Shown here: positions 25 through 61,397 of the stretch, in pieces | How positions within the stretch are numbered: position 1 is the stretch's first letter | Layout: each line of letters begins with the position of its first letter | DNA from: Candidatus Omnitrophota bacterium | GTDB lineage: Bacteria > Omnitrophota > Gorgyraeia > Gygaellales > Profunditerraquicolaceae | Assembly (NCBI GenBank): GCA_041661605.1 | Contig: JBAZUE010000001.1 | Coordinates: 606,928 to 670,927, forward strand | DNA length: 64,000 nt | Direction of reading: 5' to 3' | Translations under genes and position numbers: made by a program | The notes under the pieces: model-generated | The model's database searches: none | What the model saw: the letters and a program-made list of their open reading frames with translations, nothing else | What the model was told of the DNA's origin: nothing

Positions 25-927
25 TTAACGCATGACAAGCAGGCTCTTTATCGCCTCGGGTTTATTGACTTTACGGTAAGTTTTTTGGATTATATTGCCG
101 CCGATGGGCAGATTAGTATAAATAACAGCCATGGAAACGCCTTTTTTATAGGTTTCGGTTTCTGCAAATACACTGAATTTTTCTGTCAACGGGGAATTCC
201 CGCAAATGACCACGGATTTACCCGCCACCTTTTTAATACAATCCACAAATTGCTCCTCATCTTCGATACTAGAAGTAAATAAGACTACCTTGGGCGGCCC
301 TATGTGTTTTTTGCCCGCATTCTGCATAGCTTTTAATATTGCCACTTTCACTGCCTCGCATGACGAATGAAAAGCAGAAAGGTCCGCTGAGCCAACACCG
401 AAAAATATGTTTGTTGAAGTCACGGTCATGGCAACCACACCTTTTGCCACCCCTTTTACCGTCTTTTCATATGATAGATAGCCTTTCTTGAAATTACCCT
501 TATTATTAATTGGCTTGCCGCTTGTTTTGCAGGTTACCGGCTTTATTGGATCAGCAACACCCCCGTATATCTTCGTTTTATTGCCTAGGAATCTCCTTGC
601 TTCTTTAAGAACGGTTTGTGAATCATTTTCTAAGCTGGAAAAAATAATCGCAAAATGCGGGGTCTTACATTTCTTCCCTGCCAAGGCCATGTTTAGAGCT
701 TCATTGGTCGCCTCTTTTGAATCACTCTTGGTACTCCATCCCAAGCCAACCTCTGTTCCACATATCTTATCCATGATGCTATCTCGAATGCTTGTGACCG
801 ATTGACACTGGAGCCACCCTTGCACTTTGCTCACCTTAAAGAAAAAAAACACCCCCACAATAACGATTAAGGCAATTATTGCTGCGATAGAAATGACTAT
901 AAAGAGTTTTTTAAGCATCGGAGCCAT
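25..927 (-). CDS. Membrane-anchored FIST_N-like domain protein (putative sensory/ligand-binding protein)
   Basis: 300-aa ORF. It has an N-terminal K-rich segment followed by one TM helix (LFIVISIAAIIALIVIVGVFFFF). The remainder follows the FIST_N pattern as I recall it (STKSDSKEATNEALNMAL..PHFAIIFSS...IYGGVA; PPKVVLFTSSIEDEE...VVICGNSP). It lies directly downstream of the c-di-GMP riboswitch. The domain call is from memory, not a search. Confidence 0.4.
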   Translation of the reverse strand: MAPMLKKLFIVISIAAIIALIVIVGVFFFFKVSKVQGWLQCQSVTSIRDSIMDKICGTEVGLGWSTKSDSKEATNEALNMALAGKKCKTPHFAIIFSSLENDSQTVLKEARRFLGNKTKIYGGVADPIKPVTCKTSGKPINNKGNFKKGYLSYEKTVKGVAKGVVAMTVTSTNIFFGVGSADLSAFHSSCEAVKVAILKAMQNAGKKHIGPPKVVLFTSSIEDEEQFVDCIKKVAGKSVVICGNSPLTEKFSVFAETETYKKGVSMAVIYTNLPIGGNIIQKTYRKVNKPEAIKSLLVMR

Positions 928-1014
928 GAATTAGGCTGAAACGAGGCAAACCAAAGAGACATTCTTAGGCGAGCAAATAAAAGCCCTTCAGGAAAAATAT
1001 AGGGCTTGATATGC

Positions 1015-1043
1015 AAAAAGACCTTAGAGATGACTCCAAGGTC
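1015..1043 (-). terminator. Intrinsic terminator (expression platform of the c-di-GMP riboswitch)
   Basis: Minus strand reads GACCTTGGAG-TCAT-CTCTAAGGTC, a 10-bp stem with one G.U pair, followed by TTTTT. Confidence 0.7.
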
Positions 1044-1047
1044 TTAT

Positions 1048-1141
1048 CTCCCCTTTTGGTAACGCAGCCTCCCGTTCAACTGAACGGGACTGTCGCTTTG
1101 CGTCCCAAGATTACTCTTGGTTTGCCTTTATCAGCAGGAAG
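1048..1141 (-). promoter_or_regulatory. c-di-GMP-I (GEMM-I) riboswitch aptamer
   Basis: Minus strand reads ...AAAGGCAAACC-AAGA[GUAA]UCUU-GGGACGCAAAGC-GACAGU-CCCGUUC[AGUU]GAACGGG-AGGCUGCGUUACC-AAAAGGGGAG. The GGCAAACC, GGGACGCAAAGC and GCG..UUACC blocks and the GNRA-capped P2 match the conserved GEMM-I core (compare Vc2: GGCAAACC..GAAA..GGGACGCAAAGCC...GCGGGGUUACC). The outer boundaries are approximate. Confidence 0.8.
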
Positions 1142-1230
1142 AATCAATAAAATAAACTGCCAATTTTGTCAATTGCGCTATTAAAAATATAACATATTAC
1201 CAGTTGTCTTTCAAGAGGGCGGGATATTTC

Positions 1231-2013
1231 TTACTCATACCGCCAATGCCACGGCTCAAAGCTTATTCCAGAAGGATTATTTTTCGGATAAGAAAGCACA
1301 AAACCGTATTCAGCCGCGCGCTTCATTAGCCACTTATACTCCACAAGATTTTCAAAAGCTTCGGGGTGATCCTCATTGACCCCGTCGATATTGACAAAAT
1401 CCAAAGCCTGCCAATCGGGGGCTCCATGCTCGCTGTAACCGGCTATGGCTACAAGCTTAGCTGTTTCTCTTATGGAATAATCATGCTTTCTAAGGTAGAA
1501 GGCGAAAAGATAAAGTTGGTAAGCTGCGGAACGGTATCCTGAATCCACAAATAGAACTCTATGAATATCCCGCTTCATAGCTTTGATCATCTTACGGTAT
1601 TGGCGGTAGACATTGTCAGGCAGATATTGGCATCCAATTATTTTTGTTTTATTGCCTTCTGCTTTGGTATCTTTTATCCTCTGACCTTTTATAGAGATAA
1701 ACTTTGTCCCGGCTTTGGCAAAACCGCGATAAGGTAAAACCACGCCCAGTTTTTTAGCGTCAAGATTCAGGAATATCTTTAGAAATTCCCGCTCTTCTTT
1801 ATTTAAAGGCTGATAAAGCTCATCAAAAGTCAATAAAGGAGCCGTCCCTTTAGCCACGCGTTCTTTAACCAGCGGCTCAAGCTTGGCTAAAACCGCCTCT
1901 TCCTTTTGGATATCTTCCTGGCTTAGCCGATCCAGGTTTACTTCTGCCCGGGCTATTCCTGCACCCAGCAGTAAAAATACCGCCAAGAAAATATGTATTA
2001 GTTTTTTATGCAT
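1231..2013 (-). CDS. Secreted D-alanyl-D-alanine carboxypeptidase, peptidase M15B (VanY family)
   Basis: Signal peptide (AGIARA-EV). VanY motifs are present: VDSGYRSAAYQ, SEHGAPDWQALDF and EPWHWRYE. Confidence 0.8.
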   Translation of the reverse strand: MHKKLIHIFLAVFLLLGAGIARAEVNLDRLSQEDIQKEEAVLAKLEPLVKERVAKGTAPLLTFDELYQPLNKEEREFLKIFLNLDAKKLGVVLPYRGFAKAGTKFISIKGQRIKDTKAEGNKTKIIGCQYLPDNVYRQYRKMIKAMKRDIHRVLFVDSGYRSAAYQLYLFAFYLRKHDYSIRETAKLVAIAGYSEHGAPDWQALDFVNIDGVNEDHPEAFENLVEYKWLMKRAAEYGFVLSYPKNNPSGISFEPWHWRYE

Positions 2014-6713: not shown

Positions 6714-6719
6714 ATTAAA

Positions 6720-6833
6720 GGAGCACCGACCTACTCTCGCATAGCCTTACGACTAAACTACCATCGGCCCTGAGGGGCTTAACGGCCGTATTCGGAATGG
6801 GAACGGGTGTTTCCCCCTCGGCAAAAGCACTCC
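6720..6833 (-). rRNA. rrf: 5S ribosomal RNA
   Basis: Minus strand reads GGAGTGCTTTTGCCGAGGGGGAAACACCCGTTCCCATTCCGAATACGGCCGTTAAG...GAGAGTAGGTCGGTGCTCC. The conserved 5S loop motifs and terminal helix I pairing are present. Confidence 0.9.
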
Positions 6834-6923
6834 AAGTCTATAACAAAAATGTCAACAACTACATACAGATTTATATATATGAGCAAAAACTACTTATCCA
6901 AATAACCCAAGTGGAAAAAAATT

Positions 6924-9888
<2,965 letters not shown>

Positions 9889-10099
9889 AAAATTTGATTC
9901 TCACTCGGTTTATTTGAATTTGTAGTTTTTACCACACACAAAGTCTAAAAAAGACCTTGTATCTGTATGTCTGTTCCTGTAGGTCTCATCAACCCCAGAA
10001 ACAGTCATACTTTAAATAAATTTAAAGTATGAAGTTGTCAAAGAACATAGAATCGGATACTAAATCCGAAACAAATTTATGTTCGCTTTAAAGAACTTA

Positions 10100-10175
10100 T
10101 GGTGGAGCTGAGGAGGATCGAACTCCTGACCCCCTGCTTGCAAAGCAGGTGCTCTCCCAACTGAGCTACAGCCCC
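10100..10175 (-). tRNA. tRNA-Ala (anticodon UGC), CCA encoded
   Basis: GGGGCTGTAGCTCAGTTGGGAGAGCACCTGCTTTGCAAGCAGGGGGTCAGGAGTTCGATCCTCCTCAGCTCCACCA. The cloverleaf is intact and the G3:U70 identity pair is present. Confidence 0.95.
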
Positions 10176-10184
10176 CCTCGAAAA

Positions 10185-10261
10185 TGGTGGGCCCAAGTGG
10201 ATTCGAACCACTGACCCCAGTCTTATCAGGGCTGTGCTCTAACCAACTGAGCTATGGGCCC
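10185..10261 (-). tRNA. tRNA-Ile (anticodon GAU), CCA encoded
   Basis: GGGCCCATAGCTCAGTTGGTTAGAGCACAGCCCTGATAAGACTGGGGTCAGTGGTTCGAATCCACTTGGGCCCACCA. The cloverleaf is intact except for a C30.A40 mismatch in the anticodon stem. Confidence 0.93.
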
Positions 10262-10498
10262 GAGTTAAAGTGTAAAATTAGCTTTACTGTGTAATGCCCT
10301 GATTCATTACACCTGCCTGCTTGCCGCAGACAAGCCTGCCCGTAGGCAGGCGTTACACAATAAACCGGAAGCCTTCTTGCTCACGAATGGTTATTCGTTT
10401 TGGAAGATGACTCCCATAAATTTAAATTGAACTGCCAAGCCTTAGGATTATTAAATTAACCCCAAGTTTTTCTAATAATCCGTCGTTAAACAAAATTA

Positions 10499-12088
<1,590 letters not shown>

Positions 12089-12438: not shown

Positions 12439-13509
12439 TTATAAATTATCAACCACTTGCAAAAAAGCATCGACTATCTTTGGATCAAACTGTGTGCCGC
12501 TATTACACTTTATCTCCAGAATAGCCTCCTCCTTCAACAAGGGAACCTTCCTGTATGAACGCGCTGAACGCATAGCCTCATAAGAATCAGCTACGTGGAT
12601 TATGCGTGCGCCCAAAAGTATGTCCTCTCCTTTCCTGCCTTCCGGATAACCCGAGCCGTCATAATGTTCATGATGCTGCCTGACCAACTCTACTACGCCT
12701 CCTAAGAATGTAAGAGGCTCCAGAATCTGCGCGCCAATAGTAGGATGCTTTTTAATCTCTTCCCACTCCGAAGGAGTAAGCGCGGAAGACTTAAGCAAAA
12801 TGCTGTCCCCAATGCCTATTTTACCCAAATCATGGAGCTCACAAGCCTGACGGATCATTTCCACTTCTTTAGCCGGAAGTTTAAGGTGATTGGCAATAAC
12901 CACTGCGTACCTTGCTACAGTTTCCGAATGGCTATGCGTATAGTGGTCCCTTGCTTCGATTGCCTGCGCCAAAACCTTGATAGTGCGCATATATGTCGAA
13001 CGCAAATCCTCATAGAGCCTGCTTAAATTATTCGTAGAATCTTCTATCCTTTTTGCCAAAAGGGTGTTCTGTTTTTCTAAAGCCTTATTATTCTCCTTAA
13101 GCCCCTGCGCTATCTTGCGGCTTGCAGCTAATAACGTATGCAGTTTAATTCCTTTTTCCACGGCAAATTTCAATTTCTCTGCTTTGACCGGCCAACCTAA
13201 AGTCTCAAAAACCCCTATTTCAGCAAACTGATTGGCCTGCTCTTCTACCTCCACTTCAATTAAAACAATTATTACGCAATCAGGATCGATTTTTTTAAGA
13301 TCACTTATCGTAGAAAGAATATCCAGATCCGGGATGGCATATCTTATGATAACTAAATCACAAATATTATGTTCTAAGCTCACTACGCCAGCCTGAGAAG
13401 TAGTTTCCGTAATTAAGGCATAGTCTCCTATATTGGACAACTGTTCCTTGATCTCAATGGAATAAGACTTATCGTCGCAAATAAACAGTATCTTGCCTTG
13501 CACAACCAT
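12439..13509 (-). CDS. HD-GYP domain c-di-GMP phosphodiesterase with a degenerate (pseudo-)receiver domain
   Basis: The C-terminal half has HD (ELHDLGK) and HHEHYDGSGYP motifs (RpfG-type HD-GYP). The N-terminal 120 aa has the receiver fold pattern (ILFICDD...DLVIIRYAIPDLD...), but R56 replaces the phosphoacceptor Asp and W106-P107 replaces the conserved K-P. Confidence 0.85.
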   Translation of the reverse strand: MVVQGKILFICDDKSYSIEIKEQLSNIGDYALITETTSQAGVVSLEHNICDLVIIRYAIPDLDILSTISDLKKIDPDCVIIVLIEVEVEEQANQFAEIGVFETLGWPVKAEKLKFAVEKGIKLHTLLAASRKIAQGLKENNKALEKQNTLLAKRIEDSTNNLSRLYEDLRSTYMRTIKVLAQAIEARDHYTHSHSETVARYAVVIANHLKLPAKEVEMIRQACELHDLGKIGIGDSILLKSSALTPSEWEEIKKHPTIGAQILEPLTFLGGVVELVRQHHEHYDGSGYPEGRKGEDILLGARIIHVADSYEAMRSARSYRKVPLLKEEAILEIKCNSGTQFDPKIVDAFLQVVDNL

Positions 13510-61202: not shown

Positions 61203-61387
61203 AATCTTCTCCCTTCTGGACTTTCGCCTACGCATACAGCACCCCGCGCTAATTTGATTTGCGCGGGTGGCCATCCGTATGGCACCATCGGCCCTGGAAT
61301 TTCACCAGATCTGCTGGCGTTAAAATTTTAAACGCCTGCTCGCGGGCTTTACCGCCGGTAAGGATTTTCACCTTGCCCTAAAGATTA
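61203..61387 (-). promoter_or_regulatory. FMN riboswitch (RFN element)
   Basis: Minus strand reads AATCTTTAGGGCAAGGTGAAAATCCTTACCGGCGGTAAAGCCCGCGAGC...CAGCAGATCTGGTGAAATTCCAGGGCCGATGGT...AAAGTCCAGAAGGGAGAAGATT. All conserved RFN blocks are present. An additional hairpin of about 55 nt is inserted before the last block. Confidence 0.88.
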
Positions 61388-61397
61388 ATTACGTGTT

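Follow-up and report, generated by a model that had tools for sequence, protein, structure and literature searches.

What does the RNA leader in front of a FIST_N-like gene in an uncultured Omnitrophota bacterium sense, and how might it act on that gene? We analysed the locus on the minus strand of a 64-kb stretch (64,000 nucleotides, hereafter the window) of a metagenome-assembled genome. The features of the leader and gene are collected in Table 1.

Table 1. Features of the leader and the downstream gene (window positions)
Feature	Position	Strand	Details
Putative sigma-70-like promoter, extended -10	1186..1214	(-)	TTGAAA 1214..1209, 17-nt spacer, TG-TATATT 1194..1186
Extended P1, 5' strand UCUUCCU	1136..1142	(-)	pairs with GGGGAGA 1053..1047; in MFE folds
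c-di-GMP-I (GEMM-I) aptamer	1054..1135	(-)	Rfam clan CL00126 match, covariation
P1 core	within aptamer	(-)	pairs U1133-A1057, G1132-C1058
Junction element GGCAAACC	1126..1119	(-)	
P2	1120..1105	(-)	6 bp CCAAGA/UCUUGG, GUAA loop (1114..1111)
Junction element GGGACGCAAAGC	1106..1095	(-)	
P3	1097..1061	(-)	tip CCCGUUC-AGUU-GAACGGG at 1088..1071
Aptamer 3' element AGGCUGCGUUACC	ending 1058	(-)	
Extended P1, 3' strand GGGGAGA	1047..1053	(-)	alternative partner: T2 loop
Hairpin T1	1014..1045	(-)	AAGACCUUGGAG-UCAU-CUCUAAGGUCUU plus U5 (1019..1015); 12-bp stem, 1045..1034 with 1029..1018
Hairpin T2	975..1007	(-)	AAGCCCU 1007..1001, 13-nt loop AUAUUUUUCCUGA 1000..988, AGGGCUU 987..981, UUAUUU tail
Anti-aptamer segment GCCUAAGAAUGUCUCUUUGGUUUGCCUCGUUUCAGC, 36 nt	935..970	(-)	complementary to aptamer 5' half (1135..1095)
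Putatively regulated gene	25..918	(-)	297-aa FIST_N-only protein, N-terminal hydrophobic anchor or signal; ORF to 927

The aptamer and its ligand contacts

When all 64 kb of the window were searched with Rfam cmscan, a single match to clan CL00126 was returned, a GEMM-I (c-di-GMP-I) aptamer with 61.8 bits and an E-value of 3.5e-12; on the 331-nt region alone the same match had an E-value of 1.8e-14. Every element of the GEMM-I core listed in the preliminary description was found where it had been placed, an agreement well outside what chance would give. That description had also named RF01051 as the model for a check. The clan-level match agreed with this, but the top-scoring model was RF03167 (c-di-GMP-I-GGC, gathering score 59) and not RF01051. 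The window's own RF01051 score is masked by clan competition, and we infer that it would pass from the near-identical aptamer of locus L003, which differs by G20A and two bases at the P3 tip and which scored 65.3 bits on RF01051 (E 1e-10) against a gathering score of 35. Trimming of P1 did not reveal the window score, the UAU model taking over with a local match that skipped positions 20 and 92.

The predicted helices were examined in an alignment of seven aptamer copies from five lineages. Over its 30 pairs, 99.5% of cells were paired, versus 41-53% in slid controls. Compensatory changes were present at four pairs, and the covariation score of 0.159 (vs 0.088) was reached by none of 500 shuffles, in a test that covers only five independent lineages and in which P2 is invariant. 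The extended P1 was paired in 97.6% of cells across lineages and contained one compensatory pair (C-G to U-A). P2 carries a GUAA tetraloop. P3 forms one continuous helix, interrupted only by a GG bulge, and has no counterpart of the CUAAG/UAUG segments in the RF01051 consensus, which we take to be the tetraloop receptor. A helical receptor for the GUAA loop in P3 is possible.

Alignment to the Rfam consensus lines and the seven-copy alignment gave canonical equivalents of the ligand contacts, in Vc2 numbering: G20 at 1126, A47 at 1099 and C92 at 1059. Compared with the consensus lines of RF01051, RF03167 and RF03168, the window reads AAAG(20)GCAAACC, ACGCA(47)AAG and GUUAC(92)C, and A47 is invariant in all seven aligned copies. 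The roles of these three nucleotides have been described (PMC5888326).

Could the aptamer nevertheless be a specificity variant of the kind suggested by the 'GGC' label, or a cGAMP-sensing GEMM-Ib type, and sense a ligand other than c-di-GMP? RF03167 is the best Rfam model for it, and its scaffold, with the GUAA loop and a P3 without CUAAG/UAUG, resembles the variant models. A20, the signature of GEMM-Ib (c-AMP-GMP), occurs in the population variant L003, and a divergent leader, L059, combines a G47-like sequence with a large insertion. Against this, the window has the c-di-GMP set of nucleotides at all three positions. It has G1126 in place of the GEMM-Ib A20, and an A at position 20 was seen only in L003, a single metagenomic contig. 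The G at position 47 that we deduce to define 'GGC' (as we deduce the meaning of 'UAU') from the consensus lines of the three Rfam clan models is missing as well: the GGC consensus is ACGCGAAG and the window reads ACGCAAAG, with the cmscan match line blank at that point. What the aptamer does share with RF03167 is a compact scaffold and a modelled P1. Riboswitch variant classes were reportedly defined by Weinberg et al. in PNAS in 2017. The GGC label results from E-value competition inside clan CL00126 (61.8 bits with E 2e-12, versus 65.3 bits with E 1e-10 for RF01051 on L003), the GGC model winning on E-value only, and it is known that all three clan models pick up the same sequences (PMC9943018). 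We conclude from its sequence that the window aptamer is not a member of the c-di-GMP-I-GGC variant, despite an RF03167 score above the gathering score, and we regard a ligand other than c-di-GMP as very improbable. A protein with REC and HD_5 (HD-GYP-type) domains, encoded at 12439..13509(-) of the window, makes c-di-GMP plausible in this host; no GGDEF motif turned up among the window's ORFs of 120 aa or more in a crude search by regular expression.

The clan-level match above the gathering score, the L003 score on RF01051, the canonical contacts and the covarying helices together support assignment to class I, and this uncultured Omnitrophota bacterium appears to have a genuine c-di-GMP aptamer that is typical of its well-known family. 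Omnitrophota are known almost entirely through metagenomes, and a canonical c-di-GMP riboswitch in this phylum is a modest but clean data point. The case also illustrates that clan competition in Rfam can give a canonical aptamer the label of a specificity variant; automated 'GGC' and 'UAU' calls therefore need checking at positions 20, 47 and 92. Like Vc2 of Vibrio cholerae, the type example of RF01051, the window RNA has three helices, the GGCAAACC and GGGACGCAAAGC junctions, a GNRA tetraloop on P2 and G20/A47/C92, and it occupies a 5' leader with a terminator-like hairpin after it. It differs from Vc2 in its GUAA loop, its continuous P3 and a P1 longer by 7 bp, and in its host, an Omnitrophota MAG, and its target, an exported FIST_N-only protein. 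The RNA is ordinary for its family; the target gene and the layout of the control region are unusual.

The FIST_N gene and its relatives

The ORF proposed earlier as the regulated gene (25..927) is present, but the conserved start is the second ATG, at 918, rather than 927; the MLKK start and the hydrophobic segment that follows are conserved, in agreement with the membrane anchoring that had been suggested. The gene has a dN/dS of about 0.12 (0.11-0.15). In L003 the FIST gene is followed, after 167 nt, by one for a cyclophilin-like protein.

The assignment of the product to the FIST family rests on homologues and fold, since the window protein itself gave no Pfam match even at E<=10 (FIST_N cut-off 23.2 bits). 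The FIST_N domain read from the sequence in the preliminary description was therefore recovered indirectly, and not in a direct match. FIST_N was scored at 28.9 bits in a 93% identical protein (P0001), at 29.2 in P0004, and at 63.7 and 62.3 in P0006 and P0007. Furthermore, a family profile search retrieved about 100 proteins whose precomputed annotation includes FIST_N (PF08495), in some cases together with FIST_C (PF10442). An AlphaFold2 model (pLDDT 75.8, core above 90) had as its top Foldseek matches in the PDB two chains of FBXO22 (8ua6_C and 8ua3_C), with a probability of 1.00 and E-values of 3e-6 to 1e-5, but at a TM-score of only 0.36-0.44 and an rmsd of 8.4 A. FBXO22 is a FIST-N/FIST-C protein (PMC7419058). 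A sequence profile found no relatives in the PDB. The window protein stops at the column where FIST_C begins in P0006 and P0007. These data support a product that is an N-terminally anchored or exported FIST_N-only protein.

Comparison of loci separated two forms of the family. About 100 full-length relatives combine FIST_N and FIST_C, and a HAMP-PAS histidine kinase is encoded after them in 31/31 loci; the short form lacks both FIST_C and the HAMP-PAS kinase and has the riboswitch. Wherever upstream DNA of a short-form homologue was available, it contained the aptamer (L001-L007, L022, L024, L008 and L010), even for proteins only 66% (L024), 43% (L010) and 38% (L008) identical. None was present at about 40 long-form loci for which 300 nt or more of upstream sequence could be inspected. 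L020 gave a weak match to a custom model (22 bits) that Rfam did not confirm, and was dropped. Across the short-form loci, linkage of the aptamer to this gene family is shown to be conserved. That the c-di-GMP-I aptamer regulates the FIST_N gene is, in our judgement, highly probable; the c-di-GMP regulon would thereby gain an exported FIST_N-only protein.

The leader and its proposed switch

A promoter scan identified a sigma-70-type promoter with 10/12 matches plus the TG, which presumably drives the leader; TTGAAA-17-TG-TATACT also precedes the aptamer in the distant L008 leader. The same scan found no second promoter between T2 and the gene, so the FIST gene appears to depend on read-through.

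Both hairpins announced in the preliminary description were present: the strong one with U5 after the aptamer is T1, with a 10-bp core (1043..1015) inside a full stem of 12 bp, and the second U-tailed one (981-1007) is T2. Their stems are 10 nt apart. A generic terminator scanner with a loop limit of 8 nt missed both, T1 because its stem was extended into A/U pairs that consumed the U-tract and T2 because its 13-nt loop exceeds the limit. T1 (-20 kcal/mol) formed in every fold, whether the aptamer was formed or not, and it occurs only in the window clade and L024, being absent from L008, L010 and L059. It is a lineage-specific, terminator-like hairpin that looks independent of the aptamer. The T2 stem sequence, on the other hand, lies directly 3' of the aptamer in L008 and L010, in L010 as a 10-bp stem with U6. 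In the window its U-tract is interrupted (UUUUAUUU), and its loop resembles the P1 5' strand. The earlier reading of an intrinsic terminator thus holds in that the hairpins are terminator-like, but the hairpin under ligand control is most likely the conserved T2 and not T1.

Candidate classical antiterminators for T1 (GGAGAU/AUCUCU, UGAUUCU/GGAGUCA, and a P2 strand with the T1 5' arm) were rejected on inspection, all being far weaker than the 12-bp T1 stem. The UGAUUCU/GGAGUCA pairing did appear in the MFE of a truncated transcript but lacks conservation in L024. Ligand-bound P1 extending into T1, as an ON-type design would require, was also discarded, as inspection of the sequence revealed no complementarity.

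We propose that the promoter would give a leader of ~265 nt, with the aptamer as its first structured element, that acts in cis on the FIST_N-only gene (918..25) by transcription attenuation, most likely with ligand-OFF polarity. Without c-di-GMP, the purine-rich P1 3' strand (1054..1046) would pair with the pyrimidine-rich T2 loop (998..990) to form an antiterminator. By topological reasoning, not computed, the linker from this helix to the T2 3' arm would be only ~2 nt, so the T2 stem would be excluded and RNA polymerase would read through. With c-di-GMP, P1 would be locked and the loop freed, and T2 with its U-rich tail would form and stop transcription. In the window clade T1, which lies between the aptamer and T2 and looks unconditional, would probably lower basal expression, and the post-terminator segment 970..935 could unfold the aptamer in read-through transcripts.

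In nearest-neighbour predictions that take no account of ligand, tertiary contacts or kinetics, the antiterminator duplex had an energy of -7.9 kcal/mol (p=0.009 vs shuffled loops), and E(B)-E(A) was +3.1 kcal/mol in the window, +1.3 in L004, +2.7 in L024 and +6.1 in L001. In L008 the unconstrained MFE was the antiterminator state itself (-46.9, vs -42.9 for P1 plus terminator). Complementarity of the P1 3' strand and the T2 loop was significant over four lineages (Fisher p=0.0013), with L024 (p=0.135) and L010 (p=0.49) not individually significant. The helix has four G-U pairs in nine and is not the window's MFE. The variant leader L059 contains an explicit 11-nt antiterminator, formed by the P3 5' strand with the terminator 5' arm (-89.7 free vs -73.0 with the aptamer enforced), which points to the same OFF polarity. 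A near-isoenergetic antiterminator predicts that c-di-GMP would cause termination. We consider the explanation as a whole, a canonical aptamer controlling the FIST_N gene in cis by attenuation, to be probable; OFF polarity through T2 is plausible, if a little short of probable.

The segment 3' of both hairpins offers another route to control. It stops 16 nt short of the conserved AUG of a gene without an obvious Shine-Dalgarno sequence, and its predicted duplex with the aptamer 5' half (-40.6 kcal/mol, vs -19.8 +/- 3.4 for shuffled sequences) was reached by none of 2000 shuffles. The duplex is kept in L001 (-39.4) and L003 (-35.4), and the segment is present in L003/L004 and L024. In the full-length leader this helix and the aptamer are mutually exclusive, and the helix is favoured by 8.6-26 kcal/mol. 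Control could on this account be post-transcriptional: 970..935 would pair with the aptamer 5' half unless c-di-GMP closes the aptamer, and initiation of translation, sensitivity to RNase III or RNase E, or stability would depend on which of the two folds the mRNA adopts, with ON or OFF polarity. T1 and T2 would then be constitutive attenuators. A combination of transcriptional and translational effects has been reported for the Bc1 riboswitch (PMC11218506). However, predicted accessibility of the AUG (-20..+13) was equal in both states (0.54 vs 0.53), and sequestration of the RBS or start codon as the primary mechanism was rejected on this ground. L008 and L010 also lack the helix (duplex p about 0.2-0.3), which therefore cannot be the ancestral mechanism, and the aptamer 5' half is nearly invariant and leaves no room for covariation. 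We regard this account as unlikely, though less so than one in which promoter, aptamer and T1 make up a stand-alone sRNA of ~170 nt that binds c-di-GMP or acts as a sponge, or else a leader that is always attenuated, with the FIST gene under no meaningful ligand control. T1 does lie directly after P1 and forms regardless of the aptamer, with its 12-bp stem and U5, and Bc1 with its dual terminators showed no c-di-GMP response in vivo (PMC11218506). Yet the aptamer is tightly linked to the FIST gene in lineages that lack T1, the leader is conserved up to the start codon, T2 and anti-aptamer included, and the gene apparently needs read-through. An sRNA or dead leader of this kind is hence quite improbable.

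Attenuation through T2 could also be one part of a more elaborate expression platform. A gated terminator, with an antiterminator made of the P1 3' strand and the P1-mimicking terminator loop, may be combined with a further, unconditional terminator that keeps maximal expression low, and the anti-aptamer may unfold the sensor in escaped transcripts and so commit them or mark them for processing. The c-di-GMP-repressed product may be a periplasmic, kinase-less FIST_N module, for example a ligand sink or decoy for FIST-kinase pathways. This three-layer reading as a whole is doubtful. In the parts of the literature that our searches covered, such a platform was not found described for cyclic-dinucleotide riboswitches, and an antiterminator built on a terminator loop, together with a conserved anti-aptamer segment, is of interest for riboswitch mechanism.

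Comparison with Bc1 and NosP

The closest known layout is that of Bc1 from the Bacillus cereus group, a class-I aptamer followed by two rho-independent terminator-like hairpins 28 nt apart, an arrangement that its authors call rarely seen (PMC11218506). There, the first hairpin is predicted to be the stronger, the second one matters for function, and the dual-terminator riboswitch appeared locked OFF in vivo. Like Bc1, the window has an aptamer and then two terminator-like hairpins in one platform, and efficient termination at T1 would leave little for the T2 switch to do, as the Bc1 case suggests. The platform sequences are unrelated, and in the window it is the downstream hairpin that is conserved across lineages, with a loop able to pair with the P1 3' strand. 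A counterpart of the 36-nt anti-aptamer was not found in the passages on Bc1 consulted, and the Bc1 target is a chemotaxis protein.

NosP proteins are cytoplasmic. They are haem-binding FIST nitric-oxide sensors with the full FIST architecture that control kinases feeding c-di-GMP-metabolising regulators, and so act upstream of c-di-GMP (NosP/NosK/NosR; PMC12570481). The window protein differs in having an export signal or anchor, no FIST_C and no adjacent kinase, and would act downstream of c-di-GMP. It did not match the NosP model (NCBIfam NF041558), on which the best family member, P0007, reached 10.8 bits (E 0.18) against a cut-off of 450, and NosP orthology was rejected for want of an equivalog-level match. 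The preliminary description had presented FIST as an orphan sensory domain that a c-di-GMP-gated protein would link to a second messenger. NosP removes the orphan status (PMC12570481); the novelty at this locus is that control would run the other way, from c-di-GMP to a FIST gene. A full-text search of the literature, assessed through titles and abstracts, found no association of a FIST gene with a c-di-GMP riboswitch. The likeness to NosP lies in the histidine kinases that adjoin the long-form relatives and in the tie between FIST and c-di-GMP signalling, and the pairing of a kinase-linked long form with a riboswitch-bearing short form provides a testable handle on the role of the extracytoplasmic FIST domain.

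The aptamer and its family assignment

The minus-strand intergenic gap between a VanY-family gene (2013..1231) and ORF 927..25 contains all the GEMM-I motifs that the preliminary description had reported there. Scanning the whole window with Rfam cmscan returned a single cyclic-dinucleotide match (61.8 bits, E 3.5e-12; E 1.8e-14 when the search was limited to 930..1260). This match fell in clan CL00126; the model named was RF03167 and not the anticipated RF01051.

For clan CL00126, cmscan output gives one best match, apparently the one with the lowest E-value and not the top bit score. RF03167 matches of 61.8 bits correspond to E 2e-12, and the 65.3-bit RF01051 match of a metagenomic copy, L003 (gathering score 35), corresponds to E 1e-10. 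L003 differs from the window aptamer solely by G20A and two P3-tip bases. Comparison of the consensus lines (RF01051, ...ACGCAAAg...UgCC; RF03167, ...ACGCGAAg...UGCc; RF03168, ...aCGcAAAg...UGUCaA) shows that, on these alignments, the variant names GGC and UAU denote the nucleotides at Vc2 positions 20, 47 and 92. With window positions transferred to Vc2 numbering, the window has G, A and C at 1126, 1099 and 1059, the canonical combination, and cmscan marks no match precisely at G47, the base that defines the variant. G20 and C92 form pairs with the ligand's two guanines, and a further contact comes from the backbone of A47 (PMC5888326). The UAU model came out best in a trimmed search, through a local alignment omitting positions 20 and 92. 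The scaffold is compact, similar to the seed sequences of the variant models, with a GUAA tetraloop and a continuous P3 free of the CUAAG/UAUG segments of the RF01051 consensus (which we take to be the tetraloop receptor). We conclude from these sequence comparisons that the window carries a canonical c-di-GMP-I aptamer with this compact architecture and that its 'GGC' label is a classification artefact.

The variant at L003:3789-3870 (metagenome Ga0172371_10004687), AAAAGCAAACC, has A at the Vc2 G20 equivalent, the signature of cGAMP-sensing GEMM-Ib RNAs. Seven sibling contigs covering the site (L001, L004, L005, L006, L014, L022 and L024) have G, and the L003 A20 may reflect either a genuine polymorphism in specificity or a sequencing error. 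On the plus strand, a terminator scanner flagged the antisense of the P2 hairpin (1105-1120) as terminator-like, a call we consider artefactual, arising from the palindrome of P2 and the TTTGCCTTT that comes after it.

The window protein has few close relatives (7 matches), whose contigs we compared together with further loci from genomes and metagenomes. The aptamer was found upstream of every short-form (FIST_N-only) homologue having upstream DNA on its contig: L001-L007, L014 and L022 (92-93% identical), L024 (66%), L008 (38%) and L010 (43%; truncated where its contig ends). Across five lineages, seven copies aligned without difficulty, and 99.5% of cells were paired in the GEMM-I structure versus 41-53% with slid partners. 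Four pairs had changed on both sides, and the observed covariation score was reached by 0/500 shuffles. These compensatory changes sit in P3 and the extended P1; P2 is invariant among the seven copies and therefore uninformative.

The FIST protein and its gene neighbourhood

No Pfam or NCBIfam family matched the window protein itself, so the proposed FIST_N assignment was borne out through homologues and fold: P0001 (93% identical) matched FIST N at 28.9 bits (cut-off 23.2), and P0006 and P0007 at 62-64 bits, with weak FIST_C matches. A family profile search recovered some 100 proteins, about 470 aa long, whose precomputed domains include FIST_N either alone or together with FIST_C. An AlphaFold2 model (54 sequences) had a mean pLDDT of 75.8, with a core above 90. 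FBXO22 chains headed its PDB matches (E 3e-6, probability 1.00), although with a TM-score of only 0.36-0.44 and an rmsd of 8.4 A; next came Toblerone-fold hydrolases and partial matches to FtsZ. Profile searching by sequence revealed no PDB relative.

ORF 927..25 is present as described, but all aligned family members begin with MLKK, which corresponds to the window's second ATG, at 918. All share an N-terminal hydrophobic segment. Because the alignment supports the start at 918, the start that NCBI assigns to P0003, an identical protein in a Candidatus Omnitrophota MAG (Met52, giving 249 aa and omitting this segment), is probably too late. Three long-form (FIST_N+FIST_C) members (L042, L052, L056) have a conserved Cys after 'SG' and look like they carry lipoprotein signal sequences; other long-form N-termini are signal-peptide-like. 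From these N-termini we infer that the family here is extracytoplasmic. The short-form proteins end in the alignment where FIST_C starts, and are under purifying selection (dN/dS 0.11-0.15), so the short form is not a decaying fragment.

The gene following the long form was a HAMP-PAS histidine kinase homologue (as in L012 and L013) in 31/31 loci with at least 600 nt downstream; no kinase homologue was present in short-form loci L001, L003 and L022. No aptamer was present in some 40 long-form loci that had 300 nt or more upstream, L059 excepted. Compared with the full-length form, the short form is, by gene content, without FIST_C, without a kinase partner and with a riboswitch. In L010 the FIST gene is followed by a convergent gene, so the riboswitch there serves the FIST gene alone. 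The exported FIST_N+FIST_C proteins and HAMP-PAS kinases of L011-L058 suggest a conserved periplasmic co-sensor/kinase pair, which to our knowledge is uncharacterised. On the 2-Mb contig of L013 (5001-6422), two ORFs of 308 aa and 152 aa, ahead of the kinase, take the place of a single FIST gene. Either a frameshift or a true split could account for this arrangement, which differs from the short form that goes with the riboswitch. L020:110-184, which lies about 1 kb 5' of a long-form FIST gene in a Thermodesulfobacteriota MAG, matches group II intron domain V/VI (RF00029, 43.1 bits).

Expression platform and proposed switch

Features of the riboswitch leader (window coordinates)
Feature	Position	Strand	Details
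Predicted promoter, extended -10	1214..1186	minus	TTGAAA-17-TG-TATATT; promoter scanner
Aptamer	1054..1135	minus	Rfam cmscan, RF03167 (c-di-GMP-I-GGC), gathering score 59
T1	1045..1014	minus	12 bp, -20 kcal/mol, U5
T2	1007..975	minus	stem AAGCCCU/AGGGCUU, 13-nt loop
Segment complementary to aptamer 5' half (1135..1095)	970..935	minus	about 36 nt, almost perfect

The distant L008 leader has the same promoter arrangement. The two terminator-like hairpins described 3' of the aptamer, T1 and T2, are both present, but T1 is limited to the window clade and L024, and folding and sequence inspection yielded no credible antiterminator for it. The T2 stem sequence is common to L008 and L010, there directly 3' of the aptamer (in L010 as a 10-bp stem with U6). 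The minimum free energy (MFE) structure accommodates the aptamer, the extended P1, T1 and T2 together.

The T2 loop is unusually long and includes a pyrimidine run like the P1 5' strand (UUCCUG in both). A 9-bp helix between this loop and the P1 3' strand is possible (1054..1046 with 998..990; -7.9 kcal/mol, p=0.009). Its L008 counterpart scored -8.2 (p=0.005), and four lineages combined gave p=0.0013, L024 and L010 not being individually significant. Since only about 2 nt separate this antiterminator helix from the T2 3' arm, the helix and the T2 stem would be topologically exclusive. The unconstrained MFE of L008 is the antiterminator state (-46.9, compared with -42.9 when P1 and the terminator form). 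Elsewhere the terminator state has an advantage of just 3.1 (window), 1.3 (L004), 2.7 (L024) and 6.1 (L001) kcal/mol. Ligand-stabilised P1 would free the T2 loop, T2 would form and transcription would stop, so that nearest-neighbour energies, on which this mechanism rests, predict a c-di-GMP OFF switch. T1 may render the switch largely irrelevant. The nearest described platform is Bc1, which likewise has a dual terminator and is reported to be locked OFF in vivo (PMC11218506).

The segment complementary to the aptamer lies 3' of both hairpins, 16 nt ahead of the conserved AUG. Its duplex with the aptamer reaches -40.6 kcal/mol (shuffles, -19.8 +/- 3.4; equalled by 0/2000), and in full-length leaders is favoured over the aptamer fold by 8.6-26 kcal/mol. 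It is kept in L001, L003/L004 and L024, that is, only in the T1-containing clade, and is absent from L008 and L010. The segment may disable the sensor in read-through transcripts or create a long duplex for processing; predicted start-site accessibility was unchanged by the duplex, and the segment may affect translation in a way missed by the models used. The T1 arms resemble both strands of this duplex, a likeness that hints at an origin by duplication.

The exceptional long-form-like locus, L059, carries a divergent GEMM-I-like element (780-911) that scores 37.2 bits against the GGC model (E 1.8e-5). In this element the G21-C46 pair is flipped, the sequence is G47-like and a domain of 50-71 nt is inserted. 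Next come a terminator (near 925-965), a Shine-Dalgarno sequence and, from 1018, an ORF encoding a FIST homologue that has a signal peptide and an N-terminus like that of the long form; the gene is cut off by the end of the contig. Over 11 nt the P3 5' strand (AGCCACGGGUC) is complementary to the terminator 5' arm, and the leader has a free MFE of -89.7 vs -73.0 with the aptamer enforced. From this folding we infer that the explicit antiterminator would give the same OFF polarity by a textbook route.

Known systems and genomic context

The RNA falls in the c-di-GMP-I class and the protein in the FIST family; the riboswitch has a new target gene class and an unusual expression platform. A FIST/c-di-GMP link as such already exists in NosP, the best-understood bacterial FIST members, but it runs the other way (PMC12570481). 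A full-text literature search on FIST, c-di-GMP and riboswitch combined gave two papers, neither of which addresses an association of this sort in its title or abstract.

A crude regular-expression scan of window ORFs of at least 120 aa detected no GGDEF motif. The window encodes a response-regulator receiver (REC) plus HD_5 (HD-GYP-type) protein (12439-13509, minus strand; 119 bits) that is predicted to be a c-di-GMP phosphodiesterase. Its gene lies about 11 kb from the riboswitch, and its presence fits with c-di-GMP signalling in the organism. The window's minus strand also carries an FMN riboswitch (61270-61389; RF00050, 70.1 bits, gathering score 66.2) with a shortened P3 region, and a complete rRNA operon (6718-12088) comprising 16S, two tRNAs (10103-10261), 23S and 5S. 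Relative to the models, 36 nt are inserted into the 16S helix near position 80, and there are several insertions in the 23S.
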